Below, piece after piece: positions 1,446 to 40,896 of a stretch of DNA of 40,896 nucleotides (position 1 is the stretch's first letter; each line of letters opens with the position of its first letter). A program made the translations under genes and the position numbers. Origin of the DNA: a virus. Lineage: Duplodnaviria > Heunggongvirae > Uroviricota > Caudoviricetes. Below the pieces are notes generated by a model that was given only the letters and a program-made list of their open reading frames with translations, ran no database searches and was not told where the DNA came from. Where the stretch lies: the IMG/VR virus record IMGVR_UViG_2558309052_000002, one strand, 5' to 3'.

Positions 1446-1520
1446 TGATTCACATGAAGAATGATGCGCCGCGCGATAAATGCACTCTATCTTGTGCGAT
1501 AAATGGCATCCACGCGGCGT
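1446..1520. other. putative prophage terminus with repeated transposase-binding-like motifs
   Basis: TGATTCACATGAAG at 1446 resembles the Mu end TGTATTGATTCACTTGAAG. Two direct copies of GCGATAAATG(C/G) about 24 nt apart (about 1471-1510), then CGTTTCATTATTTGAAAAAG. Boundary is an inference; no second end available to confirm a 5-bp target duplication. Confidence 0.4.
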
Positions 1521-1539
1521 TTCATTATTTGAAAAAGAA

Positions 1540-2112
1540 TTACATTTCAGGTTGCGTTATGACAGTCCCAACAGGGTGATAGCGGTAGATCGTTGACAGT
1601 CCAATATCATAGATAATTGCCAGCCGCTTTCTGTCATACCCTTTCTGGAGCAATCTTGCGATCTGCTCATGCTGCTCCTTCGTCAGTTTCGGGCGACGTC
1701 CTCCAACTCTTCCTTGTGCTCGCGCAGCAGCCAGTCCAGCCAGCGTGCGCTCAACTATCAGTTCACGCTCCATTTCTGCCAGTGCACCCATCATATGAAA
1801 AAAGAACCTTCCCATCGGAGTGCTGGTATCGATTGAATCCGTCAGACTGCGAAAATTGACACCTTTTGCGCGTAGCTCTTCTGTGAGAGCAATGAGGTGT
1901 TTCATTCTTCTACCCAACCGATCCAGCTTCCAGACCACCAATGTATCCCCTCTTTTAAGGCACTTTAAAGCGCGTTTCAGGCCTGGTCGTTCCGACTTGG
2001 TTCCGCTCATTTTGTCCTCAAAAATCTGTTCACATCCTGCGCACATTAATGCATTGCGTTGCAAATCTGTGTTTTGGTCATTTGTTGACACACGTATGTA
2101 GCCAATCAGCAT
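1540..2112 (-). CDS. Gin/Pin/Hin-family serine DNA invertase
   Basis: 190-aa product from ATG at 2112 (RBS AGGGAG upstream): MLIGYIRVSTNDQNTDLQRNAL...GDTLVVWKLDRLGR...RSLTDSIDTSTPMGRFFFHMMGALAEMEREL..., co-linear with Mu Gin. The longer ORF in the track (to 2241) is an upstream frame extension. Confidence 0.93.
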   Translation of the reverse strand: MLIGYIRVSTNDQNTDLQRNALMCAGCEQIFEDKMSGTKSERPGLKRALKCLKRGDTLVVWKLDRLGRRMKHLIALTEELRAKGVNFRSLTDSIDTSTPMGRFFFHMMGALAEMERELIVERTLAGLAAARAQGRVGGRRPKLTKEQHEQIARLLQKGYDRKRLAIIYDIGLSTIYRYHPVGTVITQPEM

Positions 2113-2180
2113 TAAAAATACTCCCTTTTGAGTGGTTAAAGTACTGAGATAATGTGGGGAGGATTTGAGAGATAAACGTT

Positions 2181-2696
2181 GGTTTAGGAGAAGGCTCGGC
2201 GCTACCCGTTGGTGTGCCTGTTCCGTGGCCCACCGCCACACCGCCAGCAGGCTGGTTAAAGTGCGACGGGCGCGCCTTTACAAAAGAACAATATCCTGTT
2301 CTGGCCAGAGTCTACCCGACCCTCCGTCTTCCCGATTTACGCGGTGAGTTTATCCGTGGATGGGACGACGGGCGCAAAGTTGATACAGGACGTAAGTTGC
2401 TGTCCGCACAAGGGGCAACGCTGTTAAGAACAGCAATGCTGGATTATTATAACCAGGACACTACGGGAACCTCGGGGATAGTCGGCATGGGATTCAACAA
2501 TGAAGATTCCATTACAGACCTTCGTGAGGGCAGCTTTAAAATGCCGGACGGGACAACATTCAGCGATCCTGTCGTGGCAATGTCAGACAATGGTATGCAG
2601 GCTACTATTCTGACCTCTATCAGAAGCGGGTATGCGAAGGGTATCACTGTCAGACCCCGTAGCATTGCACTTAATTACATTGTGAGGGCAGTTTAA
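2181..2696 (+). CDS. alternative tail-fibre C-terminal variable cassette (A), currently silent
   Basis: Frame open from 2169 with no credible own start. Begins with the shared LGEGSALPVGVPVPWPTATPPAGWLKCDGRAFTKEQ block, then a unique region, ending ...RPRSIALNYIVRAV. Confidence 0.7.
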   Translation, partial: GLGEGSALPVGVPVPWPTATPPAGWLKCDGRAFTKEQYPVLARVYPTLRLPDLRGEFIRGWDDGRKVDTGRKLLSAQGATLLRTAMLDYYNQDTTGTSGIVGMGFNNEDSITDLREGSFKMPDGTTFSDPVVAMSDNGMQATILTSIRSGYAKGITVRPRSIALNYIVRAV

Positions 2697-3310
2697 TGAG
2701 TAACACTGCAGTTCTGGATGAAAACGGTATCGCCACTGTAGCGGGCGATATCACTGTATATCACTATGACGAGGAAACCCGGGAATACACCTCATCCTCT
2801 GTGGAGTATCTCGCCCTTGGGGTGGGTACTCCGGCACATTCGTGCGCCGATGCACCGCCGGAAGCAATTTCGGGTTACGTGGTTTGCCGGACTGCCACGC
2901 TGAACGGGTGGGAGCATGTGCCTGATCACCGCGGCGAGACGGTATACAGCACGGAGAACGGTAACCCCGTTCTGATTACCCAACCGGGTGATTACCCGGC
3001 GGACACCACCACAAAACAGCCAGCCACGCCATGGGATACCTGGAACGGTGAGGCGTGGGTAACCGATACTGAACGGCAGCGAGCCGCAGAACTGGAGGTT
3101 GCCAGACAGCAACGCCAGCAACGGGTGAAACAGGCGATGGCGTCCGTCGATCTTATCAACCTCAAACTGCGTGCTGGTCGCAGTCTGAAACCAGAAGAAA
3201 CGGCAAAACTGAACGCCGTGCTGGATTATATCGACGAGCTGAACGCACTGGATATCAGCAAGGCACCTGAAATCAGCTGGCCGGAAGCGCCACTGGCGCT
3301 TGCCGGCTGA
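2696..3310 (+). CDS. tail fibre assembly protein (chaperone) paired with cassette A
   Basis: 204 aa. ATG overlaps the cassette A stop (TAATG). Resembles phage tail-fibre assembly proteins (Mu U / P2 G type). Confidence 0.75.
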   Translation: MSNTAVLDENGIATVAGDITVYHYDEETREYTSSSVEYLALGVGTPAHSCADAPPEAISGYVVCRTATLNGWEHVPDHRGETVYSTENGNPVLITQPGDYPADTTTKQPATPWDTWNGEAWVTDTERQRAAELEVARQQRQQRVKQAMASVDLINLKLRAGRSLKPEETAKLNAVLDYIDELNALDISKAPEISWPEAPLALAG

Positions 3311-3316
3311 ACGGTA

Positions 3317-3778
3317 TCACGCCGCCCTCACGATATAGTTAAATGCGATATTGCGGGGGCGAGCTGATACATAAGCCCACCAGTCATATCTTTGTGCACC
3401 TTTAGAGGATGCATCAAATATCCACTTTTTGCCATTTAAGACCCCCAGTTGATTAGAGGTTAAAGCGTCACCAAATCCGTATTGTGTAGAGCCGAGCGAA
3501 CTGATATCTCCGGTATCATTATCATCAAAACCGGATACGATAGTCCCTTCCTGAAATGAAAGTAGCGCACGCCCGGTATCAACCTTGCGACCACCGTCCC
3601 ATCCACGGATAAACTCACCGCGCAAATCGGGAAGACGGAGGGTCGGGTAGACTCTGACCAGAACAGGATATTGTTCTTTGGTGAACGTAGCTCCGTTGCA
3701 CTGTAACCAGCCTGCTGGCGGTGTGGCGGTGGGCCATGGAACCGGTACACCAACAGGCAATGCAGAGCCTTCCCCCAA
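3317..3778 (-). CDS. alternative tail-fibre C-terminal variable cassette (B), silent, no ATG
   Basis: 153-codon frame beginning TTG-GGG-GAA (LGEGSALPVG...) 10 nt after the expressed fibre stop; ends ...RPRNIAFNYIVRAA. Diverged homology block (about 85% to A/C). No downstream assembly gene. Confidence 0.6.
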   Translation of the reverse strand: MGEGSALPVGVPVPWPTATPPAGWLQCNGATFTKEQYPVLVRVYPTLRLPDLRGEFIRGWDGGRKVDTGRALLSFQEGTIVSGFDDNDTGDISSLGSTQYGFGDALTSNQLGVLNGKKWIFDASSKGAQRYDWWAYVSARPRNIAFNYIVRAA

Positions 3779-3788
3779 ACCAACGTTT

Positions 3789-5042
3789 CTATGCCGCCCT
3801 TACGATGTAATTAAACGCAATGTTACGGGGACGAATGGTCACATAATTAACCCCATCGCCTCGCGAAGGACCTGCAAATGAAAAACGGGAGAATCCAGGT
3901 TGGTTGTCAACGATTTGGTCATAGTTATTGATTGAATGACCAGACCCAATGTCAAAATTACCTGCGTAATGAGAAAAACTTGTACCATCCTGCCGTGAAA
4001 GCAGATCGCGCCCTGTATCCACTTTTCGCCCGTCGTCCCATCCACGGATAAACTCACCGCGTAAATCGGGAAGACGGAGGGTCGGGTAGACTCTGGCCAG
4101 AACAGGATATTGTTCTTTTGTAAAGGCGCGCCCGTCGCACTTTAACCAGCCTGCTGGCGGTGTGGCAGTGGGCCACGGAACAGGTACACCAACGGGCAGC
4201 GCCGAGCCTTCCCCCAAACCAAGGTAATTGAGGACATCTTTTATACTGCCCTTAGCGATAATAGCGCGACCAATAGCTGTAAGGGTTGCCAGCTCTGCGC
4301 GGTCTGCTCCGGTAAAATAAGGCAACCGATCTGCTGCAGTGGCAAGTCCTGCCAGAGCAGTGAGCGTGGCATCTGCCGGTTGTTTTCCGTTTGCCAGATC
4401 GTATGCAGCCTTGACCGCTTTCGGTGTGGCGGCCAGTATTTCAGACGTGCTGTTGATGGCACTGCTCAATTGTACGGTGCCTTTTGCCGTCAGCGAGGCA
4501 GCAGGCACTCCCGTTATCTGACTCCACGGGTGAGTGTGGCTGACGGGCGCCTTGCCGGCTGCAAGGTCGTATGCAGCCTTGACCGCCTTCGGCGTGGCAG
4601 CCTCAGTTTCTGATTGACTGTCCGTGGCGCTGCTCAGTTGTACGGTGCCTTTTGCCGTCAGTGAAGCCGCAGGCACTCCCGTTATCTGACTCCACGGGTG
4701 AGTGTGGCTGGCAGGCGCCTTGCCGGCTGCCAGGTCGTATGCAGCCTTGACCGCTTTTGGTGTGGCGGCCAGCGTTTCAGAGGTGCTGTTGGTGGCACTG
4801 CTCAGTTGGGTGAACCCCTTAGCTGTCAGTGTCGCGTCCGGGTGGTTACGGGAACGTACGTGTTCAGCCAGTGACTGTGCGGCTTCCTCCGTTTTCTTCT
4901 TCAGCCATTTCGTCCTGTTTGCCAGTTGCCGGGGGGCTCGATTTGATATCCCGTCTGCACCACCCAGAACCGGATCTGATGTCTCCAGTTGATAGATATT
5001 TTCTTCCCACTTTTCTGTTTCATTCAGGTTTCCCATAATCAA
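3789..5042 (-). CDS. tail fibre protein (constant N-terminal part fused to variable cassette C)
   Basis: 417 aa. ATGA overlap with the upstream gpI-like gene; internal 56-aa tail-fibre repeats; C-terminal 140 aa is homology block C plus a unique tip ending ...NIAFNYIVRAA. Confidence 0.9.
   Translation of the reverse strand: MIMGNLNETEKWEENIYQLETSDPVLGGADGISNRAPRQLANRTKWLKKKTEEAAQSLAEHVRSRNHPDATLTAKGFTQLSSATNSTSETLAATPKAVKAAYDLAAGKAPASHTHPWSQITGVPAASLTAKGTVQLSSATDSQSETEAATPKAVKAAYDLAAGKAPVSHTHPWSQITGVPAASLTAKGTVQLSSAINSTSEILAATPKAVKAAYDLANGKQPADATLTALAGLATAADRLPYFTGADRAELATLTAIGRAIIAKGSIKDVLNYLGLGEGSALPVGVPVPWPTATPPAGWLKCDGRAFTKEQYPVLARVYPTLRLPDLRGEFIRGWDDGRKVDTGRDLLSRQDGTSFSHYAGNFDIGSGHSINNYDQIVDNQPGFSRFSFAGPSRGDGVNYVTIRPRNIAFNYIVRAA
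4388..4829 (-). repeat. in-frame tandem repeats (168 bp, about 2.6 copies) inside the tail fibre gene
   Basis: Protein repeat LTAKG(F/T)(T/V)QLSSA.(N/D)S.SE..AATPKAVKAAYDLA.GKAP.SHTHPWSQITGVPAAS occurs twice in full and once in part. Shadow ORFs on + at 4393 and 4729 (336 nt apart) share ARSYAALTAFGVAAS. Confidence 0.85.
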
Positions 5043-5617
5043 CTGCTCCCGTGGTTATAACTGCCATCATGGATGGCGGTATTGTTATAGCGAATGGCCA
5101 CAGACTGATACTCCAGGCTGGCCAGATGGCAGCGGGCCGGTGCAAATGCAGCCAGCGTCTGACGCAGCATCGCGGCCTGATCGTTAGTAATGGGCTGTTT
5201 CAGAATAACGCGATAAACTGCCCAGGCGGCTGCATCTCCATGAACAAACAGTCCGTTATAGCTGCGATTGCCGTCGTAACTGAGACGACCTGTGCCTTCA
5301 ATCAGATCCACTTCACCAAAGCCAAAACGGCGGATAACTTCCCGGATTGACCACGGCGTCCCTTTATACCGGTGCAGTTCGATGGCTGCTTTTATAAGCA
5401 TGCGGCGAACATCGTCCGATTCCGCCAGCTCCCAGCCATCGCCAGACAGTGAGAACTGCTCGCCCAGCCATGGCAGCGCGGAACTGTCGACGATATCGAC
5501 GAGAAAGACCATCAGTACGCTCAGGTCGATGTTATCCAGCCGTCCTGCCAGTCTTCCCAGCGTCCTGAGACTGATATCACCCTCAAGCGGTGGCGGGAGT
5601 TGTAATGGCTCAGTCAT
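5039..5617 (-). CDS. tail/baseplate protein, P2 gpI-like
   Basis: 192 aa; sits between the baseplate J-like gene and the tail fibre as in P2/Mu modules; ATGA-type overlaps on both sides. Confidence 0.7.
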   Translation of the reverse strand: MTEPLQLPPPLEGDISLRTLGRLAGRLDNIDLSVLMVFLVDIVDSSALPWLGEQFSLSGDGWELAESDDVRRMLIKAAIELHRYKGTPWSIREVIRRFGFGEVDLIEGTGRLSYDGNRSYNGLFVHGDAAAWAVYRVILKQPITNDQAAMLRQTLAAFAPARCHLASLEYQSVAIRYNNTAIHDGSYNHGSS

Positions 5618-6713
5618 CAGACACTCCAGTCATGTTAAGAGTGATTGCCGTACAGTTTGCCCATTCGTTTTCTGCCACCACCCGCAGTGCCGGTGTCACC
5701 AGTTCAACCTGGTACACCCCGGAAACGGACAATGCACTGATAATCTGGCTGGGGACAATATCGCGCCCCAGCGTGGCGGCACGTGATGCCACCCAGTTCT
5801 GTATGGCGCTGTTAGCGGCATCTTTTACAGACCTGGCATCCTGATCACGATAGATCGTAATCCTGGCTTCAATGGTGTAATCCACCTTCACTGGTGTTTT
5901 AGCCCGCACTGTATCAGTGAGTGGCCTGACTTTCTCATCAGAGCAGAAACTCTCTACCAGCGTGAGAACACCGCCGTCCGGCAGACCGGTACTGAGCAGC
6001 GGATACAGATCTACGGTCCCGGGAACCGGGGAAAGCACAGCAACATCGACAATGTTGGGATGGGCCTGCATGGCATGAAAGCGGTATGCGCCACGGCTTC
6101 CGGCATTGGTGAATGACTCCGGGGCCAGCCTGATACGCTCCCGGAGCCTGTCATCGTCTTCCTGTTCTGAACCGCCGGAACTGGCCATCAGATTGCTCAC
6201 CAGCAGGTTAACGTTATCAATCTCATCGAGTAACTGACTGACCTGCGCAGGTTGCCAGCCGTTACCAGCGGTACCGGGTTCGGTACAGGTGGCCGTGACA
6301 TTGACCAGCAGCAATCCGGCCTTCAGTACCACATCTGTATCGGTGGCAAAAATAACGCTGTCGGAAGCGCTGACGCGGGTGCCTGCCGGGATCAGCACAT
6401 CAATGGCCAGTGCCTCATCTACGGAGAACTGGAGCGTGGTGGTGGCAGGCTGCGCGGCAAGACGGTATACACCGACCAGTTCACCGAGGTAATCAATCAT
6501 CGGCTCACGGGCAAAGGCGACCAGATTCTGCTTTGCTGCCTCCTGTACCGCAACCCTGACCAGCATTTCGCGATAGGCCCACAGATCAATCAGCAGACGT
6601 TCTGCCTGTGCCGGGTACAGCGTTTTGCCGGTATCCGCTTCATACTTCGCAATCATTTCTGCCGTGATTTTGTCGGCATCGCGTTCAATAAAATCGGGTT
6701 CTGTCAGCGCCAT
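5610..6713 (-). CDS. baseplate protein J-like
   Basis: 367 aa; conserved position between gpW-like and gpI-like genes; overall resemblance to baseplate J family. Confidence 0.8.
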   Translation of the reverse strand: MALTEPDFIERDADKITAEMIAKYEADTGKTLYPAQAERLLIDLWAYREMLVRVAVQEAAKQNLVAFAREPMIDYLGELVGVYRLAAQPATTTLQFSVDEALAIDVLIPAGTRVSASDSVIFATDTDVVLKAGLLLVNVTATCTEPGTAGNGWQPAQVSQLLDEIDNVNLLVSNLMASSGGSEQEDDDRLRERIRLAPESFTNAGSRGAYRFHAMQAHPNIVDVAVLSPVPGTVDLYPLLSTGLPDGGVLTLVESFCSDEKVRPLTDTVRAKTPVKVDYTIEARITIYRDQDARSVKDAANSAIQNWVASRAATLGRDIVPSQIISALSVSGVYQVELVTPALRVVAENEWANCTAITLNMTGVSDD

Positions 6714-7051
6714 AGCAGCTCCTGAGTCCGGGTCTGTCCGTCTGAGCCTTTCCAGCTCACCCGGAGCGTAAGATGTTCGCCGTCGACGGCGGGTTTAACT
6801 GACATAAGCTGGCAGCGGGGCTCCCAGCGCCGGATGGCATCGACGGATTCGCGCACCACATGCGGAATGGCCCGGTCTACAGGCCAGTCGATATAAAGAT
6901 GCAGATTGCTGCCGAACTCCGGGCGATGCGGGTCGCTGCCGCGGGGAGTCCGCAGGATAATTTGAATCGCCTGCCGGATATCATCCAGCCCCCGGACAAT
7001 TTCGCCGGGAGCCTGCAGGGCTGGTTGCCAGAATACTGAGGTTGTTTTCAT
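6704..7051 (-). CDS. baseplate protein W-like (GPW/gp25 family)
   Basis: 115 aa, ...RGSDPHRPEFGSNLHLYIDWPVD... typical of the gpW/gp25 baseplate wedge family. Confidence 0.8.
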   Translation of the reverse strand: MKTTSVFWQPALQAPGEIVRGLDDIRQAIQIILRTPRGSDPHRPEFGSNLHLYIDWPVDRAIPHVVRESVDAIRRWEPRCQLMSVKPAVDGEHLTLRVSWKGSDGQTRTQELLWR

Positions 7052-7105
7052 GGGGGCAGTATTGCCCCCGTGCGGGAACGCTGATATTAAAGGCGTTTAA
7101 AAAGC

Positions 7106-7702
7106 TCAGTGGGAGTGGTGGCTGGAGTTTTCGCCATCAGACAACATACTGCCCGTGGCATGGACATTCCCTTTAATCTCGATATTGCCATGGATGGTCG
7201 CGGTAACACCTTCACCACCAGAACCCGCCATGCCTCCTTCGTAAATCAGCTTACCCCTGACACGCAGATCTCCGGTAAGTTCGGTTTCCGGTGCGTCAAT
7301 CGTGGCTTTCTGTGTTTTCAATACCACATCAGCACCACACTCAATGACAATATGCTCAATGCCGCCCCGGATGATCAGAGTGTGCGTCTTCCGGTTGTAG
7401 CTGTACTCTGCACCATCAGCAAACCGGGTTCCCCGGATATTTTTGTCACTGAACGGTGGTTTATCGACGTCTGAATACACCGCGCCCAGAATAACACCAT
7501 CCTCGCCGTTGGCATCGAGCAGCACCTCAACCTGCTCCCCCACGTCAGGGAGCCAGTAATCTTTGTTATCCTGGGTATTGCGCTGCAGCACGTTAAGCCA
7601 GTTTGTGCGCAGGTTATCGCATTCAGGCAGACGAACGCGGGCCTGAACCCTGTCGGCATCAACGGCACTGACCGTACCGACCTGACGAGTGACACCAGTC
7701 AT
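7106..7702 (-). CDS. baseplate assembly protein V-like (spike/hub)
   Basis: 198 aa with a glycine-rich C-terminal region; position between D-like and W-like genes. Confidence 0.75.
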   Translation of the reverse strand: MTGVTRQVGTVSAVDADRVQARVRLPECDNLRTNWLNVLQRNTQDNKDYWLPDVGEQVEVLLDANGEDGVILGAVYSDVDKPPFSDKNIRGTRFADGAEYSYNRKTHTLIIRGGIEHIVIECGADVVLKTQKATIDAPETELTGDLRVRGKLIYEGGMAGSGGEGVTATIHGNIEIKGNVHATGSMLSDGENSSHHSH

Positions 7703-8853
7703 TTTTTCTTCTCCTTAATCACCGTCGATGTACTGCCATCCGGGTGATAAACCGTGAGTTTCTGAGTTTTTTGTTTTTTCCCTCTTGTGACTGGCCCCCG
7801 TGCCACTTCCAGCTCTGTGGTGTAGCCGCTGTTACGGTCAAACGCATGGCGGGCAGTGGTTATGAGCCATGGCCCGGATAACTGCCCAAAACTCACCAGT
7901 TCAATTTTGTTGCCTGCTGTCAGTTGAGGTGTTCCCGTCAGCGTCAGGGAGCCGTTCTGCTGGTATTCGTTATGTCTGGCCAGTGCTGAATCCGCTTTAA
8001 TCCGGGCACTGTCCGGGTCGCTGACGCGGCTGTTAACTTTAAGTGAGTCAGCGCTGGTAACCTTACCACCTTTGAGCTTTTTGTCGCTTTCACGGGTACC
8101 ACCATCAGCTTCGTAGACGATCAGTTTTTTACTGCTGCTTTTCTGGTGTTTTACCTTTGCAGATTTATAGACCCGGTTGATGGTGTCACGCAGGGAAAAG
8201 CGGGCCACATCCTGCGGTTTTAACTGCCTGACCGGCTCCTGACTGCGCAGTGTGGCCAGATGAGAAAAAATCAGCTGGTCACTGACCACTTTCACTGCAT
8301 AACCATACTCGCTGGCCAGCCGGCGCAGAAAACCCACGTCGGTTTCAGCATACTGGGTCACCCGGTCGATTCTGATGGACTCAATGCTGCCCACCAGTTT
8401 CAGCCGGTGCTTTCTGGCAATCCGCCCCGCAACAGCTGCCAGCGTGGTGTTCTCAAAACCACGACTGGTTTTAGTCCGCAGGGCACTGTTAACCGAGGTG
8501 GCCACCCCACGGATAGAAACAACGGAAGCGGGCGAACTCACTTCGATCTCGTCTATAGAGAACGTACCGCAGGACAGCAGCTTCTCGCCCTGATAGCCCA
8601 TTTTCAGCGTCAGCGTGTCACCCTTGCCCGGATACCATTTATCCAGCCAGCGGCCATCGGTGTCGTCCAGCTCCACCTCAATGGTATCGGACTCATTTTT
8701 GATGTTATCGCTCCAGGTCACACGGGTGACATAAGGCGCGATATCAGAGGTGATGTTTTTCTGCAGATACCACAGAGTGAACACCGGTGTCAGCACATCG
8801 CTGACGCCGGTTAACGCTGATGTGACTTGCGCAGTGCTGTTTATCTCAGCCAT
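7699..8853 (-). CDS. tail protein, P2 gpD-like (Mu P-like)
   Basis: 384 aa; ATGA overlap with the downstream V-like gene; size and order match the P2 gpD / Mu gpP family. Confidence 0.75.
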   Translation of the reverse strand: MAEINSTAQVTSALTGVSDVLTPVFTLWYLQKNITSDIAPYVTRVTWSDNIKNESDTIEVELDDTDGRWLDKWYPGKGDTLTLKMGYQGEKLLSCGTFSIDEIEVSSPASVVSIRGVATSVNSALRTKTSRGFENTTLAAVAGRIARKHRLKLVGSIESIRIDRVTQYAETDVGFLRRLASEYGYAVKVVSDQLIFSHLATLRSQEPVRQLKPQDVARFSLRDTINRVYKSAKVKHQKSSSKKLIVYEADGGTRESDKKLKGGKVTSADSLKVNSRVSDPDSARIKADSALARHNEYQQNGSLTLTGTPQLTAGNKIELVSFGQLSGPWLITTARHAFDRNSGYTTELEVARGPVTRGKKQKTQKLTVYHPDGSTSTVIKEKKK

Positions 8854-29432: not shown

Positions 29433-29513
29433 ACTTAGATGTCCGTCTATATCAGATGGGCGTCTAAGTTACCAATTCTCGTCTGATGGCTACATACGGC
29501 GGTCAGTTTACGC

Positions 29514-32483: not shown

Positions 32484-32529
32484 ATATTTTGAGTCTTTGT
32501 AAAAGGTTATCACATATCGCAAAAGAGGT

Positions 32530-32844: not shown

Positions 32845-32854
32845 GGAGTAATCA

Positions 32855-33775
32855 ATGGGACGTACCAAATCACCGATTAACACTGAACTGAACGCCGATG
32901 TACCGCTGTCGGATGATCTCAACGTCAGCCTGAATGCCATGACACAGCATCGCATGGAGATCATGCAGCAGTTTGGTGATGGACTGCCTTATGAACGTGA
33001 ACGCATCGTTCACGAAGCACGTTTTTATATGGCGCAGAGTGCTGAATCTATGTTGGAAGCGGGTAAGCGGCTGATCATCTTAAAAGAAAATGAACCGCAT
33101 GGTGATTTCACAAATATTCTGGAAAACGACCTCGGATTAGCACCACAGGTAGCTCGTCGCATGATGCAGGCCAGCGTGAAATTTCTCGGCAATGGAGATG
33201 AACAGCCAAAACGCTCAGCGCTGAGCGTTTTGGGAAAAACCAAGTTATATGAACTGATGGTTCTGGATGACGAAGAACTCGACGCATTAGCTGATGGTGG
33301 AACCGTCGCCGGTGCAACGCTTGATGATATTGATCGCATGACCAGCCGCGAACTGAAGGCCGCCCTGCGTGAAGCGCGCGAAACCAACGCAGCTCAGCAA
33401 CAGGTGCTTGCCGGAAAGGACGAAAAAATCAACGAACTGGCCACAAAACTGGAGAAGAAATCGCGCCTGCAACCTCCGCCGCCAGACGAAGAACTGAAAA
33501 AATTGCGGGCGGAAGTGACGGCATTAGCGGTTGAGGCCGAATCGGCTATCGCCGTCCGGCTGTCCAGTGTTTTTGAGACCCTGTGTGAATACTGCACCAA
33601 AAACATGATCGATACCCCCAGAGATTTCATGGCCGGTCTGGTCTGCCAGATTGAACGCAGTGTTCATGCATTACGTGAGACGTTTGACCTTGAGGCCGCT
33701 CCATCGGGTAACGATGCCCCCGCCTGGCTGACCGAACCGGAACCTGAAATCAACCGACCGGAGGATATGCAGTAA
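32855..33775 (+). CDS. hypothetical protein (early region)
   Basis: 306 aa with a central coiled-coil and acidic C-terminus; no family I can name. Confidence 0.5.
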   Translation: MGRTKSPINTELNADVPLSDDLNVSLNAMTQHRMEIMQQFGDGLPYERERIVHEARFYMAQSAESMLEAGKRLIILKENEPHGDFTNILENDLGLAPQVARRMMQASVKFLGNGDEQPKRSALSVLGKTKLYELMVLDDEELDALADGGTVAGATLDDIDRMTSRELKAALREARETNAAQQQVLAGKDEKINELATKLEKKSRLQPPPPDEELKKLRAEVTALAVEAESAIAVRLSSVFETLCEYCTKNMIDTPRDFMAGLVCQIERSVHALRETFDLEAAPSGNDAPAWLTEPEPEINRPEDMQ

Positions 33776-34092
33776 TGAATACGAATAACACACAAAATAC
33801 CCTGATGGACAGCCCGGAGGCACTGGGGCACGCACTGTGTAATCTGCTGCCGGAGATGGTGCAGGGTTTCCGCGTGGTGACCCCTTCCGGTGAAATCTGC
33901 GTACCCGCACAGGAGACGCACCCGTTTGTACTGACGATGGAGGTGATGCTGATGCAGCAGATAAGACGTCTGCAGAATCAGTCAGCATTACGCCCGGTAG
34001 TTGCACCGCAACCGGTAAATACCGTGGTGAAAACCTGCGATGGCGAAACACTGTGCGACCTCGCCAGAAAAATTGCCGCCAGAATCGGATAA
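33775..34092 (+). CDS. hypothetical protein (early region)
   Basis: 105-aa ORF whose ATG overlaps the upstream stop; immediately upstream of the transposase gene. Confidence 0.45.
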   Translation: MNTNNTQNTLMDSPEALGHALCNLLPEMVQGFRVVTPSGEICVPAQETHPFVLTMEVMLMQQIRRLQNQSALRPVVAPQPVNTVVKTCDGETLCDLARKIAARIG

Positions 34093-34107: not shown

Positions 34108-35877
34108 ATGACCCCGGCACTGACTGAAAAACTGGTTGAAACAGCCCGCGCGGCACGTGACGCGGGGCATGGTAAACGCGGTGCAATATACGACGCTGCC
34201 TGTGCTGAACTTGGCATGTCCCGCGCCACTCTGCTGCGCAGGCTGAAGGAGGTATCTGTGACTGATAAACGCAAAAAACGCGCCGATGCCGGGCGCAGCG
34301 CCCTGACCCGCGACGAAGCCGCGCTGATATCTGCCACACTGCGTGAGGCCACCCGCAAGAACGGTAAGCGTCTCTATTCCATCGCAGATGCAGTGGAAAC
34401 CCTGCGGGCTAACGGCTTTATCACCGCAGGCAGAACAGATGAAACCACCAGTGAGTTTTTCCCGTTGTCTGAAGATGCCATCAGCCGTGCTCTGCGTAAC
34501 TATGGCCTGCACCCGGAACAACTGGATGCCCCTGCACCACATACCGAAGTGGCCAGTCTGCATCCCAATCATGTCTGGCAGATTGACGCCTCACTCTGCA
34601 CGCTTTACTACCTGAGCAATGGACATAAAGGGCTGCAGGTGATGGACAGCGCGAAGTTCTACAAGAACAAGCCCGCTAACCTTGCCCGTATCGCCAGTGA
34701 CCGCGTGTGGAGTTACGAGATTACCGACCATGCCAGCGGCTGGATTTACGTTGAGTATGTGACGGGCGCGGAATCAGGTGAGAACCTGTGTTCTGTGCTT
34801 ATCAACGCCATGCAGGAGCGTGGCGGCGCAGACGTGCTGCACGGCGTGCCGAAAATACTCTATCTCGACCCCGGCTCGGCAAACACCGCGGGTATGACGA
34901 AAAACATGTGCCGCTCACTGGGCATCGACCTGATAGCGCACAAGCCGCATAACGCCCGCGCCACCGGACAGGTGGAAAAGGCGCGTGACATTATCGAACG
35001 CAAGCTGGAGCCGGGTCTGAAGTTCCGGCCGGTTCACAGTCTGGAAGAACTCAACGCGCTGGCCGCGAAATGGCGCAGCCACTTTAACGCCACGGCTGTT
35101 CACAGCCGCCACGGTAAAACCCGCACGGATATCTGGCTGAAGATTACTGCTGAGCAGCTGAAAAAAGCGCCTTCCGTTGAGGTATGTCGTGAACTGGCTG
35201 TGGCGGCACCAGAACTCCGCAAAGTCACGCCAAAACTTCGTGTCTCGTTCCGGGGCACTGAATTTGACGTATCAACGGTACCGGGCGTACTGGTTGGTGA
35301 AAAACTGATGATTACCCGTAACCCATGGCGCAGCGATGTGGCACAGGTGGTTCTGACCGGTGAGGACGGCCACGAGACGTTCTTCCTGGTCGAAGAGGTC
35401 AGAAAGAACGAGTTTGGCTTTGCTGAAGGCGCGGCGGTATTTGGCGAAAGTTACAAAGCCCTGCCGGAAACCCCGGCACAGATGGCGGCAAAAGAAACCG
35501 AAGCGCTGGTTACCGGTACAGACAACGCCGCAGATGCAGCCGCCGCACGCAAGGCGAAGGCGCTGCCGTTCGGCGGGCGGCTTGACCCGTATAAACATAT
35601 CGACGACACCACACTTCCGGCCTATATGCCGAAGCGTGGTCAGGCCTCTGACGTACGCGGGCCGCGCACTGAACAACGTCCCATGACTCATGTGGAGGCC
35701 GCGAAAGCCCTGCGCGATAAGTTCAGCGCCGACGGCCTTACCTGGACGCCGGAACATTACCGCCAGTTAACGGCACAGTACCCGGACGGCGTACCGGAAG
35801 CCGCACTGGATGAAGTCATGGCCACGCTGACCACACCGGCCCGCAGCAGTGTTATCAGCATTGTTAACGGCAACTGA
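34108..35877 (+). CDS. DDE transposase (MuA-like function, rve-type core)
   Basis: 589 aa; N-terminal HTH-like region, candidate catalytic acidic residues (HVWQIDAS, YLDPGSANT) and gene order directly before an AAA+ MuB-like ATPase. Shorter than MuA (663 aa). Confidence 0.8.
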   Translation: MTPALTEKLVETARAARDAGHGKRGAIYDAACAELGMSRATLLRRLKEVSVTDKRKKRADAGRSALTRDEAALISATLREATRKNGKRLYSIADAVETLRANGFITAGRTDETTSEFFPLSEDAISRALRNYGLHPEQLDAPAPHTEVASLHPNHVWQIDASLCTLYYLSNGHKGLQVMDSAKFYKNKPANLARIASDRVWSYEITDHASGWIYVEYVTGAESGENLCSVLINAMQERGGADVLHGVPKILYLDPGSANTAGMTKNMCRSLGIDLIAHKPHNARATGQVEKARDIIERKLEPGLKFRPVHSLEELNALAAKWRSHFNATAVHSRHGKTRTDIWLKITAEQLKKAPSVEVCRELAVAAPELRKVTPKLRVSFRGTEFDVSTVPGVLVGEKLMITRNPWRSDVAQVVLTGEDGHETFFLVEEVRKNEFGFAEGAAVFGESYKALPETPAQMAAKETEALVTGTDNAADAAAARKAKALPFGGRLDPYKHIDDTTLPAYMPKRGQASDVRGPRTEQRPMTHVEAAKALRDKFSADGLTWTPEHYRQLTAQYPDGVPEAALDEVMATLTTPARSSVISIVNGN

Positions 35878-35887
35878 GGAGGGAAAC

Positions 35888-37054
35888 ATGCTGGTACTGA
35901 AGCAGCAACTGAAAGAGGCCCGTATTCCACAGGCGGTGGTGGCGAGAGCTGTCGATGTTTCTGAGGCCACGCTGGCCCAGATTGTGAATCATAACGCGTG
36001 GCCCCGCACCAGCCCCGGAGAAGTGCGCCGGCGTCTTGCGTCCTGGCTGGAAAGTCAGGGGATTGATACAACGAAGAGTTTTGATGCTGTACAGGGCGCG
36101 GCCACGCCCCGTACAGCGGGTACCACAGATAAAACGAGCCTCAGTGAGGAAGAGAATATGTTACTCAAAAAACAGGTGTTATTTCCAGCAACCAAAAAAG
36201 CGTTTGGTCTTTTCCGTGACCCGTTCGCCGACGAAGCCATGCAGGGTTCTGATGATGTGTTCACCACCCCGGACATTCGCTACGTGCGTGAGGCGCTGTA
36301 CCAGACAGCCCGTCATGGTGGGTTTATGGCCGTCATCGGTGAGTCCGGTGCGGGTAAATCCACGCTGCGCCGCGACCTGACTGAACGTATCAACCGCGAG
36401 AATGCGCCGGTAATTGTTATCGAGCCATACATCATCGCTATGGAAGACAACGATGTGAAAGGGAAAACCCTGAAGGCAGCAGCTATTGCCGAAGCCATTA
36501 TCAGTACCATCGCACCACTGGAAAGCATCAGACGCAGTCAGGACGCCCGTTTTCGCCAGTTGCATCGCGTCCTGAAAGACAGCAGCCAGGCGGGGTTCAG
36601 CCACGTTCTGGTGATTGAGGAGGCCCACAGTCTGCCCATTCCGACACTGAAACACCTCAAACGCTTTTTTGAGCTGGAGTCCGGTTTCAAAAAACTGCTG
36701 TCCATCGTGCTGATTGGCCAGCCGGAACTGGCGACAAAACTGTCTGAACGCAATATGGAAGTCCGTGAAGTCGTTCAGCGCTGTGAGGTGGTCGAACTTC
36801 TGCCTCTGGACAATAACCTTGAAGAATTTCTGACGTTCAAACTGCAACGGGCCGGTAAACAGCTGACGGACATTATGGACGCCGGTGCAGTGGATGCCAT
36901 ACGTGCCCGCCTGAGCAATCCGGGAAGTCACCGTAAAAATATGGTCAGCCTGCTGTATCCGCTGGCCGTCAGTAACCTGGTAATAGCCGCCATGAATCTG
37001 GCCGCTGAAATCGGGGTTCCACAGGTCAACGCTGACGTTGTCAAAGGGGTTTAA
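35888..37054 (+). CDS. MuB-like transposition ATPase (AAA+)
   Basis: ATG at 35888 with RBS GGAGG; Walker A GESGAGKST and Walker B-like VLVIEEAH; follows the transposase gene as in Mu A-B. Confidence 0.8.
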   Translation: MLVLKQQLKEARIPQAVVARAVDVSEATLAQIVNHNAWPRTSPGEVRRRLASWLESQGIDTTKSFDAVQGAATPRTAGTTDKTSLSEEENMLLKKQVLFPATKKAFGLFRDPFADEAMQGSDDVFTTPDIRYVREALYQTARHGGFMAVIGESGAGKSTLRRDLTERINRENAPVIVIEPYIIAMEDNDVKGKTLKAAAIAEAIISTIAPLESIRRSQDARFRQLHRVLKDSSQAGFSHVLVIEEAHSLPIPTLKHLKRFFELESGFKKLLSIVLIGQPELATKLSERNMEVREVVQRCEVVELLPLDNNLEEFLTFKLQRAGKQLTDIMDAGAVDAIRARLSNPGSHRKNMVSLLYPLAVSNLVIAAMNLAAEIGVPQVNADVVKGV

Positions 37055-37056: not shown

Positions 37057-37326
37057 ATGAAATCCACCACAGGTATCAACCAGCAAATCAGCAAAGTGCA
37101 GTCAGCCATTATGGCGCTTAAGGCGACGAACACGGATGTACAAAGCATCACCATCAGGGGTAACAAACCTGTCATCCGCGTTTCCCGGAGTGCGCATTGC
37201 ATGCGCATGCTTGAGCAGGGAAAGGCCTGTTATCTGTATACCGGACATGACCACAGGGGATATTTCCGTCAGGGCGTTTTCGAACTGCACGGCTGTCGCG
37301 TCGTGTGGCCGGAATCTTTGTGGTAA
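37057..37326 (+). CDS. hypothetical protein (position of Mu kil)
   Basis: 89-aa ORF starting 2 nt after the B-like stop; order-based only. Confidence 0.4.
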   Translation: MKSTTGINQQISKVQSAIMALKATNTDVQSITIRGNKPVIRVSRSAHCMRMLEQGKACYLYTGHDHRGYFRQGVFELHGCRVVWPESLW

Positions 37327-37353
37327 TCAGCACAACTGGAGAAATCATAAAAA

Positions 37354-37884
37354 ATGGCAAAAAGTACAAAAGGTGCAAAACGTATCAAGGCCGCAGCAGC
37401 ACTCTGGGTGCCGGGGACACGTGAAGAGGTCATTGAGGGAATCAGACTACTCGGTGACGCACAACGTGAACTGGTCAGGGCTGAAACAGAAATGAATGAC
37501 GCCATTGGCGATATCACCGCACGTTATGCCCCGCTCACCGAGAGCCTGAAAAAACGCATGGCCGAACTGCAGTCCGGTATTCAGACATGGTGTGAGGCAC
37601 ACCGTGATGAACTGACCGGCAACGGGAAGGTGAAGTTCGCTAACCTCACCACCGGCGAGGTGCAGTGGCGAAACCGTCCGCCATCAGTCAGTATCCGTGG
37701 GGCGGATAATGTTATTGAATTACTGAGACGTCTGGGGCTTGAGCGCTTTATTCGTGTAAAAGAGGAAATAAATAAAGACGCTATCCTGAATGAAAAAGAG
37801 GCCGTGAAAAATATTCCCGGTATTTCCATTAAAAGCGACATTGAGGATTTTTCAATAATTCCTTTTGAGCAGGATGTGCAGTAA
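37354..37884 (+). CDS. gam: host-nuclease inhibitor Gam (Mu Gam family)
   Basis: 176 aa, MAKSTKGAKRIKAAAALWVPGTREEVIEGIRLLGDAQRE...RPPSVSIRG...LGLERFIRVKEEINKDAIL...IEDFSIIPFEQ, strongly co-linear with Mu Gam as I recall it. Confidence 0.9.
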   Translation: MAKSTKGAKRIKAAAALWVPGTREEVIEGIRLLGDAQRELVRAETEMNDAIGDITARYAPLTESLKKRMAELQSGIQTWCEAHRDELTGNGKVKFANLTTGEVQWRNRPPSVSIRGADNVIELLRRLGLERFIRVKEEINKDAILNEKEAVKNIPGISIKSDIEDFSIIPFEQDVQ

Positions 37885-37981
37885 ACACACCACGTTAATT
37901 ATTTAATAAAAACATTTTCTTTTTTATTCCGACGTCAGCGCCGCGGGCTTCTGCACGCCGGAAACAGAGGAGAATTAAATC

Positions 37982-38176
37982 ATGATATTTAAATGTATTC
38001 AGTGCGAGAGGGATATAACAGCCCTGCGTTTTCACAGCGCCATCGCCGTGATGTCCGGTAAATACCACATCCCTGCGGTACGCGTCACCCTGGTCTGCCC
38101 GTACTGCAGCCAGCATTTTTCGGCAGACGTGCCCGTCATGGAATTCTCCCGCCCTGACAGGGAGGACTCGCAATGA
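37982..38176 (+). CDS. small zinc-ribbon-like protein
   Basis: 64 aa with two Cys pairs (CIQC ... CPYC); RBS GGAG upstream. Confidence 0.45.
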   Translation: MIFKCIQCERDITALRFHSAIAVMSGKYHIPAVRVTLVCPYCSQHFSADVPVMEFSRPDREDSQ

Positions 38177-38445
38177 TTACCCCACAGGAAGCACGACAGC
38201 GCACCCGAACCCTTGTTGAACACTATGTCAACGAGTGTGAATGCCGCGACCTCACCGATGTGAAGCACGTCCTGACGGCGCTAATCAGCATGGCCACACA
38301 GGCCATTGTGGCGACCAACGGAAAGGAGGCTGCCCTGCAGGTACTGATGAACACACTCACCCACACGGCAGAGCATGAGGTGCCGTACCGGATGGAAACC
38401 ACTGCAGAAGGCGGCCTGCACATCACCGTCAGCCGGAAGCACTGA
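38173..38445 (+). CDS. hypothetical protein
   Basis: 90-aa ORF; ATG overlaps the previous stop (ATGA). Confidence 0.45.
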   Translation: MITPQEARQRTRTLVEHYVNECECRDLTDVKHVLTALISMATQAIVATNGKEAALQVLMNTLTHTAEHEVPYRMETTAEGGLHITVSRKH

Positions 38446-38454
38446 GGGCGCGGC

Positions 38455-38751
38455 ATGACACGAAACACCGAACTCACCCGCACCGCCCTCTACCGTCTGG
38501 CCCTGCAGCGTTTCGGGCCGGACGCACAGGCCCTGAAACTGGCAGAAGAGGCCGCTGAACTGGCGGCCAGTGCCGCCCGCAACCTGAACGGACAGGGCAG
38601 CGAAAGTGACCTCGCGGCAGAGCTGGCAGACGTGGAAATCATGACAGAGCAACTGCGCCTTCAGGGGATGGACCGGCTGATTGACTTCCACAAACAGAAA
38701 AAACTGGAACGTCTGGCTGCACGACTGGGCGTGATTTACACGAACGAGTAA
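38455..38751 (+). CDS. possible MazG-like nucleotide pyrophosphohydrolase
   Basis: 98 aa; LKLAEEAAELAASAARNL...DLAAELADVEIMTEQL matches the E-x2-E ... E-L-A-D-V pattern of small MazG-type NTP pyrophosphohydrolases. Motif-level only. Confidence 0.4.
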   Translation: MTRNTELTRTALYRLALQRFGPDAQALKLAEEAAELAASAARNLNGQGSESDLAAELADVEIMTEQLRLQGMDRLIDFHKQKKLERLAARLGVIYTNE

Positions 38752-38765
38752 CCGGGAGGCATTCA

Positions 38766-38981
38766 ATGGCTGACATACTCAGGGAAATCACCGCATGGAC
38801 ACTGATTCTTACTGGCCTGGCGACATGCCTCAGTGCGGGGGCAGCCCTGGCTGCCCTGCTGATGCACATAACAACACAGTGGTTATGGGAAAAGCTTAAA
38901 GCAGCATACAGCCTGAAAGAGCTGTCCGACGCTGTCCGGGCATGGAAACGGCAGAAAAATACCGGAGATACAGAACAATGA
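38766..38981 (+). CDS. small membrane protein
   Basis: 71 aa with one hydrophobic helix (ITAWTLILTGLATCLSAGAALAALLM). Confidence 0.45.
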   Translation: MADILREITAWTLILTGLATCLSAGAALAALLMHITTQWLWEKLKAAYSLKELSDAVRAWKRQKNTGDTEQ

Positions 38982-39661
38982 CAGACCAGAATAAACACAT
39001 TGAGAAACTGAAAAAGTTGCTGGCGCTGGCCGCATCCGGCAACCCGCACGAGGCCGCTCTGGCACTGCGCCGAGCCCGTAAACTGATGGATGTTCACGGC
39101 ATCACACATTCCGACATTGCTATGAGTGATATTGATGAAACCATCAGTCACTACTGGCCGACAGGCAGTCTCCGTCCACCGCGCTACATGCTGGGCCTGA
39201 TGAACATCATCCGCGAGGTATTTGGTGTTAACTCCATCATTCACCCCGGCACGCATCCGTCTGTGGGGTTCTACGGCAACCGGGAACGTGCGGCACTGGC
39301 TGCATACACCTGGGAAGTGCTGGCCCGTCAGCTGAAAAAGGCGCGTCAGCAGTATATCAGTGCACAGAACAAAAGAATAAAAACCGCCACCCGCACCAGC
39401 CGTGGAGACCAGTTTGCCGAAGGCTGGGTGCTGGCCGTTATCAGTGAAATACAGTCCTTTGCCCTGACCGATGATGAGCGTGAACTGATGCAGCAGTGGC
39501 TGGAACATAAATACCCGCAGACGCAAACCACCAGGGCGCGTAAACCGGGAAGAAGCCGCAATGGCGACGCCTCGCGCTATGCGGGGTTTCGTGAAGGGCA
39601 GAACGTCAGACTGCACCGCCCGGTCAGTGGGCAGGAACAACAGAAACTGGAGGCCAGATGA
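38978..39661 (+). CDS. DUF2786-like prophage protein
   Basis: ATG at 38978 overlapping the upstream stop; N-terminus KHIEKLKKLLALAASGNPHEAALALRRARKLMDVHGIT is the signature I associate with DUF2786 proteins. Confidence 0.5.
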   Translation: MTDQNKHIEKLKKLLALAASGNPHEAALALRRARKLMDVHGITHSDIAMSDIDETISHYWPTGSLRPPRYMLGLMNIIREVFGVNSIIHPGTHPSVGFYGNRERAALAAYTWEVLARQLKKARQQYISAQNKRIKTATRTSRGDQFAEGWVLAVISEIQSFALTDDERELMQQWLEHKYPQTQTTRARKPGRSRNGDASRYAGFREGQNVRLHRPVSGQEQQKLEAR

Positions 39662-39888
39662 TTACGCTATCAGGTAAAAGCCGGAAATTAAAAGCCTGCC
39701 GAATATCTGCCAGATACCTTTTTGCCCGCGCCTTTTTTAAGAACGTCAGGCCGGGGATCACAATTGGTGTTATTGCCGGACGCGAACAGGTTGAAAAATA
39801 CATGTCAGGTGCATGGTGGAATAACGACCCTGTCATTGCTGCCCGTAATATTCATATCGAATGGGGAGGTATTCAGAATGACTACTGA
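39658..39888 (+). CDS. hypothetical small protein
   Basis: 76-aa ORF, ATGA overlap with the upstream gene. Confidence 0.4.
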   Translation: MITLSGKSRKLKACRISARYLFARAFFKNVRPGITIGVIAGREQVEKYMSGAWWNNDPVIAARNIHIEWGGIQNDY

Positions 39889-40084
39889 AACCATTGTCTG
39901 TTTTCTTTTCTGGTATATGTACGCAGGATCATGCAGCGCAAGACTTCATCGTTCCCTGGGCTATGGCAGGCACTACGACACCGCGCATTACATCCTGTAC
40001 ATGACCGCCGTCATGTTGTTCTGGCCAGTCACCCTGCCAGCTGCAACCGACATTGTTGCCGACAGACTGAAAAAAAGGAGATGA
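39878..40084 (+). CDS. small membrane protein
   Basis: 68 aa from ATG at 39878; two hydrophobic segments (IVCFLFWYMYAG, ILYMTAVMLFWPV). Confidence 0.4.
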   Translation: MTTETIVCFLFWYMYAGSCSARLHRSLGYGRHYDTAHYILYMTAVMLFWPVTLPAATDIVADRLKKRR

Positions 40085-40085
40085 T

Positions 40086-40535
40086 ATGCAGAAAAAACGC
40101 CTGATACAGCTTATCCATATTGCCCGTAATGAACTGGGTATGGATGAAGACACCTACCGCCAGATGTTACAGGGGCTGACCGGTAAAGCCTCAACCAAAG
40201 GAATGGATACCACACAACTAAACTGCGTGCTGGAATCCATGAAAAAGAAAGGCTTTCGCGTTAAACCAGCCAGAAAAGCCAGCTCCGGTTTACCGCTTGA
40301 TAACCATCCGCAGTCCAGGAAAATTCGTGCGCTATGGCTTGAAATGGCTGCTGCCGGCATTGTTCGTGACCGTTCAGAAAATGCATTAGCGAGGTGGATC
40401 AAGCGGGAAACGGGCATCAGCGCCCTGCGCTGGCTCAGTACTGAACAGGCAAGCAGTGTTATTGAGAAACTGAAGAAGTGGCAGCGCAGAGCTGCGGGAG
40501 TCAAACATGAGCGACCTGAATCAGTTTCGAAGTAA
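40086..40535 (+). CDS. GemA-like protein (Mu gp16 family)
   Basis: 149 aa, MQKKRLIQLIHIARNELGMDEDTYRQMLQGLTGKAS...; immediately upstream of the Mor-family gene, as gemA precedes mor in Mu. Confidence 0.6.
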   Translation: MQKKRLIQLIHIARNELGMDEDTYRQMLQGLTGKASTKGMDTTQLNCVLESMKKKGFRVKPARKASSGLPLDNHPQSRKIRALWLEMAAAGIVRDRSENALARWIKRETGISALRWLSTEQASSVIEKLKKWQRRAAGVKHERPESVSK

Positions 40536-40896
40536 GGGGCCGGAACTCCTGGTGGAACTGGCACAGCATACCTCTGAGACCGTTCGCGAGATTATTGATA
40601 TTGAGCCCGAAGTTGCCGACCAGATTGGTCAGGCCGTCGCGAACCGAATGATGCAGGTCTGGGGCGGGCAAAACGTTTATTTCCCGATGGGCATGGTATG
40701 GAAGGTCAGTCAGCGCGACCGGGAAATCTTCAGGGAGTTTAACGGACGCAACCACCACGAACTGGCCCGCAAATTTGGTGTTTCGCTTCAGTGGGTCTAC
40801 AGCGTGGTTAAGCGGGTAAGAAAAGAAGAACTGGATCGGATGCAGGGCAAGCTATTTGCTGATGAACCCGATGCAGATACGGAGAAAAAAGAGTAA
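40507..40896 (+). CDS. mor: Mor/C-family transcription activator
   Basis: 129 aa; core ...WGGQNVYFPMG...SQRDREIFREFNGRNHHELARKFGVSLQWVYSVVKRVRK... matches the Mor/C activator family (HTH at C-terminus). Stop codon is the last triplet of the window. Confidence 0.8.
   Translation: MSDLNQFRSKGPELLVELAQHTSETVREIIDIEPEVADQIGQAVANRMMQVWGGQNVYFPMGMVWKVSQRDREIFREFNGRNHHELARKFGVSLQWVYSVVKRVRKEELDRMQGKLFADEPDADTEKKE

Follow-up and report, generated by a model that had tools for sequence, protein, structure and literature searches.

The window analysed here, that is, the whole 40,896-nucleotide stretch of the IMG/VR virus record IMGVR_UViG_2558309052_000002, begins with the host gene aroA (1..1284, plus strand; named aroA in an identical RefSeq sequence), which is a flank outside the phage, and then carries a prophage whose genes form two blocks on opposite strands. 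From the invertase gene (2112..1540) to the holin gene (26767..26417) all phage genes lie on the minus strand, except for an inverted tail-fibre cassette at 2214-3310, and from a ner-like open reading frame (ORF) at 32295 to the late activator gene Mor (40507-40896) all genes lie on the plus strand. The lysogeny switch is situated in the middle of the genome, with the repressor on the strand of the late genes and the early operon on the other strand, running outward to the phage end with the Mor/C gene last. This divergence of the early and late modules had been noticed in an earlier sequence-only reading of the window, and the same picture emerged from the ORF listing and from the RefSeq annotation of a twin prophage in E. 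coli strain 4/4 (L003), which is free of the insertion sequence (IS) present in the window. We conclude, with a probability of roughly 93%, that the window holds a single transposable myophage, Mu-like and of the BcepMu type, complete but for 163 bp and inserted by DDE transposition in the first codons of ycaL beside aroA. The divergent map is the standard layout of its family and is not a fusion of two prophages.

Pairwise alignment showed that the window equals the L003 prophage plus 2,553 bases near 26986. One ORF is interrupted there; the other 52 are intact, and all but the portal gene, which has one base change, are identical to those of the IS-free twin. Apart from the IS, the window was 99.9-100% identical to Escherichia phage PhiKM (PQ738613.1), which is placed in Bcepmuvirus in the GenBank taxonomy. 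Both PhiKM and the prophage found at aroA-ycaL in strain 4/4 and in about 357 other genomes show this level of identity over the shared DNA and are without the ISEc23-like element and the 19-bp repeat that flanks it. The strain 4/4 prophage also has the same insertion site and left junction as the window.

At prophage-free sites of other E. coli strains, aroA runs directly into ycaL. Their sequence agrees with that of the window as far as base 1462, phage DNA runs from 1462 on, and the comparison of filled and empty sites sets the host/phage junction at 1461/1462, instead of at 1446 where it had been placed before. The left copy of the target duplication, GAAGAA (1456..1461), occupies codons 2-3 of the host gene ycaL, as seen from the empty and filled sites. 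The invertase-side, or tail-side, terminus of the phage (1462..1505, plus strand) starts with TGATGCGCC and is homologous to both BcepMu termini. It contains a 21-bp imperfect terminal inverted repeat, TGATnnGnCnnGnGATAAATG, which is common to both phage ends, and two GCGATAAATG repeats, 23 nt apart, that are putative transposase-binding sites.

The termini were defined from three independent insertions of near-identical prophages: one in ycaL with the 6-bp duplication GAAGAA (L003), one in a DUF3300 gene between lpdA and acnB with the 6-bp duplication GAAAGT (L006), and one that splits irp2, the gene of the yersiniabactin synthetase HMWP2, with the 6-bp duplication CTCAGG (L007; NZ_OZ039410.1 2041000-2082200). 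In all three insertions the element opens with TGATGCGCC and closes with CTAATCA, so that its ends read TGAT...ATCA. The irp2 insertion is unambiguous and sets the duplication at 6 bp, not 5 or 7; the 5-bp duplication that the sequence-only reading had looked to at both ends, which is the length known for Mu, was not what these sites carry. Without the IS the mobile unit is 37,045 bp long and has moved as a single piece at the three chromosomal sites. The last base of the window coincides with the Mor stop codon, and the right (Mor-side) end of the phage, transferred from the twin prophage to the window frame, lies 163 bp further on. A search to the right for this end and for a C-like activator had been advised; the end is indeed there, whereas the activator needed no extension, being already the last gene of the window.

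The insertion splits ycaL after its third codon (ATG AAG AAT; window 1454-1462; right junction at L003 38487-38520), and the body of the gene is thereby parted from its start codon and promoter. RefSeq keeps a ycaL ORF by letting it begin at an ATT codon that lies within the end of the phage. The early operon, with Mor at its end, is transcribed toward ycaL with no recognisable terminator between the two, and a search of the twin prophage found no intrinsic terminator after Mor. Relatives of the element were present in 639 of 5,426 complete E. coli genomes, 357 of them with the prophage at the aroA-ycaL site, and all of these 357 genomes have ycaL parted from its start.

The 53 translated genes of the window were searched against the BcepMu and Mu genomes. 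The minus-strand genes match top-strand BcepMu genes from gp52 down to gp21 and the plus-strand genes match bottom-strand genes from gp16 down to gp1, with 36 of the 53 proteins in strict mirror-image order, and all nucleotide high-scoring segment pairs between the two genomes fall on one antiparallel diagonal. The assignment of the map to the BcepMu group, made in the sequence-only reading, is thus upheld, and the layout is the one described in PMC2771037. The passages on BcepMu in PMC2771037 and PMC2920897 report two gene clusters on opposite strands, lysogeny control at their interface and a P2-like tail. Those in PMC2771037, PMC2628397 and PMC2920897 describe a Tn552/IS1604-like transposase unrelated to MuA, ends with CA dinucleotides, and a phage that, as characterised there, has no inversion system.

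Mu homologues, with E <= 1e-3 as the limit, were found for only 10 of the 53 proteins: Gin (76%), Gam (62%), TerL (49%), F (47%), GemA (36%), Mor (30%), G, the portal protein, gp47 and a short fibre segment. At this limit Mu gave no match to the transposase and ATPase, to either of the regulators, to the lysis genes or to most genes of the tail; the tail genes that matched did so weakly and were gpJ and the short fibre segment only. The late module had been said to have the Mu order. This is correct for the order of functions, but the tail genes are P2-like and the proteins with a Mu match are limited to these ten.

The layout is shared well beyond E. coli. A scan with the transposase, limited to one genome per species, gave 208 relatives; 80 loci were analysed, and 59 of them had TerL within 10 kb. 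In 55 of these 59 loci from other species TerL is upstream on the opposite strand, which is the divergent arrangement. The remaining four (L042, L044, L048 and L074) are colinear as in Mu, with ner, transposase, ATPase, GemA, Mor where detected, lysis genes (holin, SLT), TerS and TerL on one strand. The ATPase gene is directly adjacent to the transposase gene in 78 of the 80 loci. Because both layouts are found within one transposase family, the entire early operon would have been inverted as a block, with the transposition machinery unchanged.

Two halves of opposite strand polarity, with an IS and cargo genes between them, might also arise if two independent defective prophages stood back to back, a late remnant ending at about 26.8 kb and an early remnant starting from about 32.3 kb. 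The sequence-only reading had kept this alternative and had named a second set of phage termini between 26.8 and 32.3 kb as the sign by which it would be recognised. In a scan of the window that allowed up to three mismatches, no TGATnnGnCnnGnGATAAATG-like terminus was found in this interval; TGATnnGnCnnGnGATAAATG matched at the two outer ends, and the single internal match, with three mismatches in the portal gene, is read as chance. The longer 21-bp pattern was chosen for this search because GATAAATG alone is found twice within the tail genes by chance. At each of three chromosomal sites a single 6-bp duplication encloses the entire 37 kb, the IS is missing from otherwise identical copies, and the sequenced BcepMu phage genome and 55 of the 59 related loci show the same layout. 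A single duplication around the whole unit, together with the lack of internal termini, refutes the idea of two prophages, and we give it next to no credence. Practically the same must be said of a true Mu relative (Muvirus) whose early region was inverted privately in this strain. Gin, Gam, TerL and F, at 76%, 62%, 49% and 47% identity, are clearly Mu-related, and the four colinear loci with this transposase family indicate that layout flips have happened in evolution. However, the transposase, the B-like ATPase, the repressor, the ner-like protein, the lysis genes and the tail are without a Mu match, bar the weak ones of gpJ and the short fibre segment; the layout is common to hundreds of E. 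coli genomes and to distant genera and is therefore not private; and the target duplication is 6 bp against 5 bp in Mu.

A third possibility accepts the BcepMu type and supposes that this copy is no longer viable, being fixed, domesticated, a tailocin-like remnant or crippled by the IS. We regard this as unlikely on the whole, although it deserves far more weight than the other two. With the 2,553 extra bases the prophage reaches ~39.6 kb, and heads of the BcepMu type, according to the passages on packaging in PMC2920897, take the genome and only 0.2-2 kb of host DNA, packaging being started at the Mor-side end, where the pac site is. The copy may therefore exceed the headful, and its far, invertase-side terminus could be cut off. 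The occupation of the same site in 357 genomes points in the same direction. On the other hand, the IS sits in a non-conserved accessory ORF and the other 52 ORFs are intact, and relatives occupy several other sites and differ between strains in the shuffling of their fibre cassettes, which argues for recent activity of the lineage. A tailocin role has been proposed for conserved prophage regions of ST131 (PMC9205054); their identity with this prophage is conjectural, and the protein accessions in the supplements of that paper gave no match to it.

Several observations weigh against the reading of the window as one complete, mobile and regulated phage. The prophages at the same site in 357 genomes reflect clonal inheritance and not ongoing hopping. 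This copy bears the 2.5-kb IS and the fibre gene of its twin is marked fragmentary in RefSeq, both of which leave the activity of this copy doubtful. The nucleotide identity to BcepMu is only ~68% over ~11 kb. The pattern of the candidate late promoters given below was derived from the same four sites, so that its zero expectation is circular and only the conservation across species is independent; and Mor binding, the operator and the signal-arrest-release nature of the endolysin are deduced from sequence only.

The low nucleotide identity also makes the GenBank genus label Bcepmuvirus appear generous. Only ~11 kb of the ~37 kb aligns to BcepMu at ~68%, and the usual ICTV genus rule is 70% nucleotide identity genome-wide. 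In its transposase, ATPase partner, layout, termini, lysis cassette and type of head and tail the element is that of a BcepMu-like phage in the broad sense. For Muvirus the picture is the reverse, with no similarity to MuA or MuB, a divergent map, one Mor/C gene and a 6-bp duplication. The label 'BcepMu-like' is safe, and the strict label 'Bcepmuvirus' is not.

Only part of the phage is covered by the PhiKM record, and its Mor-side end has another host flank. At 20234-20576 of this record (L001) the middle of a fibre cassette is joined to a 343-bp stretch that resembles host DNA, annotated as an Fe2+ ABC transporter permease, which adjoins the Mor-side terminus at PhiKM 20577, and the invertase region is missing. 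The record gives the impression that linear DNA with host flanks was circularised on assembly. The host DNA next to this terminus and the multiple insertion sites are no more than indirect evidence of replicative transposition with variable host DNA at the packaged ends.

Within the late module, the lysis cassette and two small conserved ORFs (24406..26767, minus strand) are colinear with BcepMu gp21-gp26. The holin (26767..26417, minus) has a Holin_2-3 domain and is followed by an endolysin (26414..25674, minus) with an SLT domain behind an N-terminal hydrophobic segment, as judged by inspection of the sequence, and then by Rz (25690..25040, minus), in which an Rz1 lipoprotein is embedded in the +1 frame, an arrangement as in BcepMu. 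An internal methionine of the endolysin aligns with the start of BcepMu gp22. The N-terminal segment may be a cleaved signal or a signal-arrest-release anchor, either of which fits the sequence, and these features are consistent with the signal-anchored lytic transglycosylase that had been proposed.

The head and packaging module (15701..24406, minus) is colinear with BcepMu gp38-gp27 and encodes connector proteins, the major capsid protein, a protease/scaffold, Mu G-like and Mu F-like proteins, the portal protein (DUF935), TerL and TerS; the identity to Mu is 49% for TerL, 47% for F, 29% for G and 27% for the portal. The tail genes (5039..15711, minus) comprise gpI, J, W, V, D, X, U, the tape measure, assembly chaperone, tube and sheath under their RefSeq names. 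They are 31-76% identical to, and colinear with, BcepMu gp51-gp39, and the tail is called P2-like through these matches to BcepMu genes annotated as P2 homologues.

Four boxes TTAAWATC, each exactly 23 nt upstream of CTGYC and all in late orientation, are confined to the four main gaps between genes of the late module. From their sequence and position they are likely to be activator (Mor)-dependent late promoters. The candidate for the lysis and packaging operon (26790..26825, minus) is upstream of the holin gene. That for the protease/scaffold and capsid operon (19323..19358, minus) has TAAAGCCGATTAAAAGAC as its counterpart in BcepMu, where it lies upstream of gp32 in the homologous gap. The third, for the tail assembly and tape-measure operon (13406..13441, minus), is upstream of the tail assembly chaperone. 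The fourth, for the baseplate operon (7055..7090, minus), reads TTAATATC-N23-CTGCC and is upstream of gpW, with TTAATATC also present in BcepMu in the homologous gap upstream of gp49. All four boxes, that of the third candidate included, are retained in the Klebsiella 'phage KP12', and BcepMu, a genome of 63% G+C, has TTAAWAKM in three homologous gaps. Among related loci a box upstream of the holin gene was found in 27 of 47, against 0.018 expected per region, while the more distant Pseudomonas-type loci have a different conserved box.

Two further elements were seen in the late gaps. A fifth box, TTAAAATC, is found at 23837-23844 on the opposite strand in the gap between TerS and TerL. The gap between the Mu G-like and protease/scaffold genes contains a conserved imperfect palindrome (19432-19463, minus), and BcepMu has a palindrome at the same place with compensatory changes in the stem. 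The strong gyrase site of Mu is in the equivalent G-I gap, and the palindrome could be a terminator or an analogue of the gyrase site.

The central region was described before as 5.5 kb with a repressor, Dam, ORFs of unknown function and an IS66 element. All of these are present, but the region measures only ~3.0 kb once the IS is removed. The IS (26986..29517, minus) is an ISEc23-like element of the IS66 family with a tnpA helix-turn-helix (HTH) gene, tnpB and DDE_Tnp_IS66, recognised by Pfam IS66 domains and GTAAGCG terminal inverted repeats; ISEc23 is the RefSeq name on matching copies. It splits an accessory P-loop ORF (26898..30179, plus; PHROG 3787) into 26898-26985 and ~29537-30179. This ORF has 242 aa when intact, as in L003 and PhiKM, and is not conserved, and the insertion raises the length of the prophage from 37.0 to ~39.6 kb. 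The IS, missing from PhiKM and strain 4/4, is a secondary insertion private to this copy, and its junction occurs in none of the 5,426 complete E. coli genomes.

The flanks of the IS are odd. A 100% identical IS is known in lambda variants, and the copy in lambda 4C10 has an ordinary 8-bp duplication, CCATTATA. Here, in place of the 8-bp duplication typical of IS66, there is a 19-bp direct repeat, CGTACTGGCGCGAATAGAG, at 26967-26985 and 29518-29536. Compared with the uninterrupted target there is one extra C to the left and one extra T to the right of the IS, and a 28-bp block with borders resembling the IS ends is repeated. Either an artefact of the assembly or some aberrant event may be the cause.

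The rest of the centre holds a 134-aa ORF of PHROG 2266 (30155..30559, minus; from the PHROG scan), a Dam-type N6-adenine DNA methyltransferase (30964..31728, plus; PF02086, E 6e-29) which is cargo and has no BcepMu match, and the repressor (31845..32201, minus), a CI-like HTH_3 protein of 118 aa that is divergent from the early operon and takes the position of BcepMu gp17. Related E. coli prophages hold a different repressor here, and the immunity and cargo region is variable.

In the 93-bp gap between the repressor and the early operon, TTGATA-17-AATAAT (32219..32247, plus) is a good sigma-70 match and a candidate early promoter. A perfect 18-bp palindrome, TGCTCATAATTATGAGCA (32225-32242), found nowhere else in the window, fills the spacer of this promoter, and the two would together form the operator and early promoter. 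The operon starts with a ner-like HTH protein of the BcepMu gp16 family, an IclR-type HTH protein, a DUF3102 protein and a 105-aa ORF (32295..34092, plus), with 34-46% identity to BcepMu gp16, gp12 and gp10 in the same order. These are followed by the DDE transposase (34108..35877, plus; PHROG 310), which had been taken as shorter than MuA: it has 589 aa with only the rve catalytic core (PF00665), is 68% identical to BcepMu gp9 over 581 aa, and found no match in the Mu genome and only noise in the Protein Data Bank (PDB), MuA included. The next gene encodes the MuB-equivalent AAA+ transposition ATPase of the ExeA family (35888..37054, plus; AAA_22; PHROG 296, 'DNA transposition protein'), which is 59% identical to BcepMu gp8 and for which a sequence search of the PDB likewise gave only noise. 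A region of the semi-essential type (37057..40084, plus; names from RefSeq of the twin) has small ORFs, Gam (37354-37884) and a DUF2786 protein; Gam shares 62% identity with its Mu counterpart and has none in BcepMu. GemA (40086-40535, plus; PF06252; 44% identical to BcepMu gp2) and the Mor/C-family late activator (40507-40896, plus; PF08765; 54% identical to BcepMu gp1) complete the operon, the latter being the single gene of its family in the phage.

These elements suggest a cascade in which the repressor would bind the palindrome within the early promoter. Upon derepression, the early operon would yield the ner-like regulator, the rve-type transposase, its AAA+ partner, Gam, GemA and, lastly, Mor. 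The transposase and ATPase would replicate the element by transposition through the paired ~10-bp repeats at its TGAT...ATCA ends, with 6-bp target duplications. Mor would then turn on the four late promoters on the opposite strand and so the lysis/packaging, head, tail and baseplate/fibre operons, and the Gin-type invertase would shuffle three alternative fibre tips.

The fibre switch lies at the other end of the phage. The serine DNA invertase (1540..2112, minus), with Resolvase and HTH_7 domains, is 76% identical to Mu Gin and adjoins a multi-inversion region (2168..4229) with three gix-like sites (cores at 2174-2185, 3777-3788 and ~4216-4225), each of which heads one variable C-terminal fibre cassette. 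Unlike the two-state G segment, the switch thus has three sites and three cassettes, two direct and one inverted. The inverted cassette (2214-2696) alone is accompanied by a tail-fibre assembly gene (2696-3310), one direct cassette is silent (3784..3317), and the expressed fibre gene (3789..5042, minus) joins a constant N-part, whose N-terminus matches BcepMu gp52, to the other cassette. The constant part contains three tandem repeats of 168 nt (56 aa) at 4384-4887. The fibre has 417 aa here and 664 aa in relatives, and the repeat number therefore probably varies. In strain 1446 (L010), which has the prophage at the same chromosomal site, the cassettes are arranged differently, which indicates that the switch was active recently.

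For annotation, both halves of the window belong filed as one mobile phage of the BcepMu type, probably inducible, and not as two remnants. Since it is common, sits in ycaL and also interrupts irp2, the element truly contributes insertional mutations and variable tail fibres to clinical E. coli. It is an already-known kind of phage, common in E. coli, and adds nothing new on genome organisation. A reading in which such a block inversion of the early operon and a two-tier cascade of the divergent form, with one Mor/C protein at the far end acting on four conserved late boxes, are new features of the family is rather improbable. Should neither of them have been described before, the family would offer a natural test of whether module orientation affects Mu-type timing, the geometry of operator and ends, or early read-out into host genes, here ycaL.

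Compared with Mu (NC_000929), the likeness consists of a DDE transposase with an AAA+ partner, TG...CA ends, Gam, GemA and Mor, and of the order in which the functions follow one another, from lysis through head, tail and the invertible fibre segment to gin. The differences are that early and late genes are colinear in Mu and divergent here, that Mu has its own type of tail where this phage has a P2-type tail, and that Mu has both Mor and C where one Mor/C protein is found here; com/mom, present in Mu, is lacking in this phage. The candidate late promoters would be analogous to the C-dependent late promoters of Mu, in a cascade that appears two-tiered here and is three-tiered in Mu. The Pseudomonas phage B3 group has a siphovirus tail and a transposase 56% identical to the one in the window, encoded, like that of BcepMu, on the bottom strand close to the left end. 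A closer relative is the Klebsiella 'phage KP12' (OM835952.1; L002, clone KP12_2, 35 kb), which has the same layout with an invertase at ~86-88% nucleotide identity and differs in the immunity and cargo region. KP12_2 is probably a co-assembled prophage contig, and its gene content does not fit its filing under Vequintavirinae as a lytic phage.

The closest match in organisation is with BcepMu (NC_005882) and phiE255, which have the same order in mirror image: Mor/C and GemA at one end, followed on the same strand by the genes of the ATPase and the rve transposase and by the ner-like gene. The divergent map is said to have been published as a hallmark of the BcepMu group since 2004, by Summer and colleagues. 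BcepMu has, as here, the repressor, holin, SLT endolysin, Rz/Rz1, Mu-like head and P2-like tail on the other strand, and its termini are homologous, with TG...CA ends and paired repeats, the second repeat 23 nt in. It differs in its repressor and is without Gam, Dam and, as described in the passages on BcepMu in PMC2771037, an inversion system, and an acyltransferase stands where the E. coli phage has its invertase and fibre cassettes. Relative to BcepMu, the additions of the E. coli lineage are a Gam of the Mu type, the Dam methylase and a Gin-type invertase with three gix-like sites.

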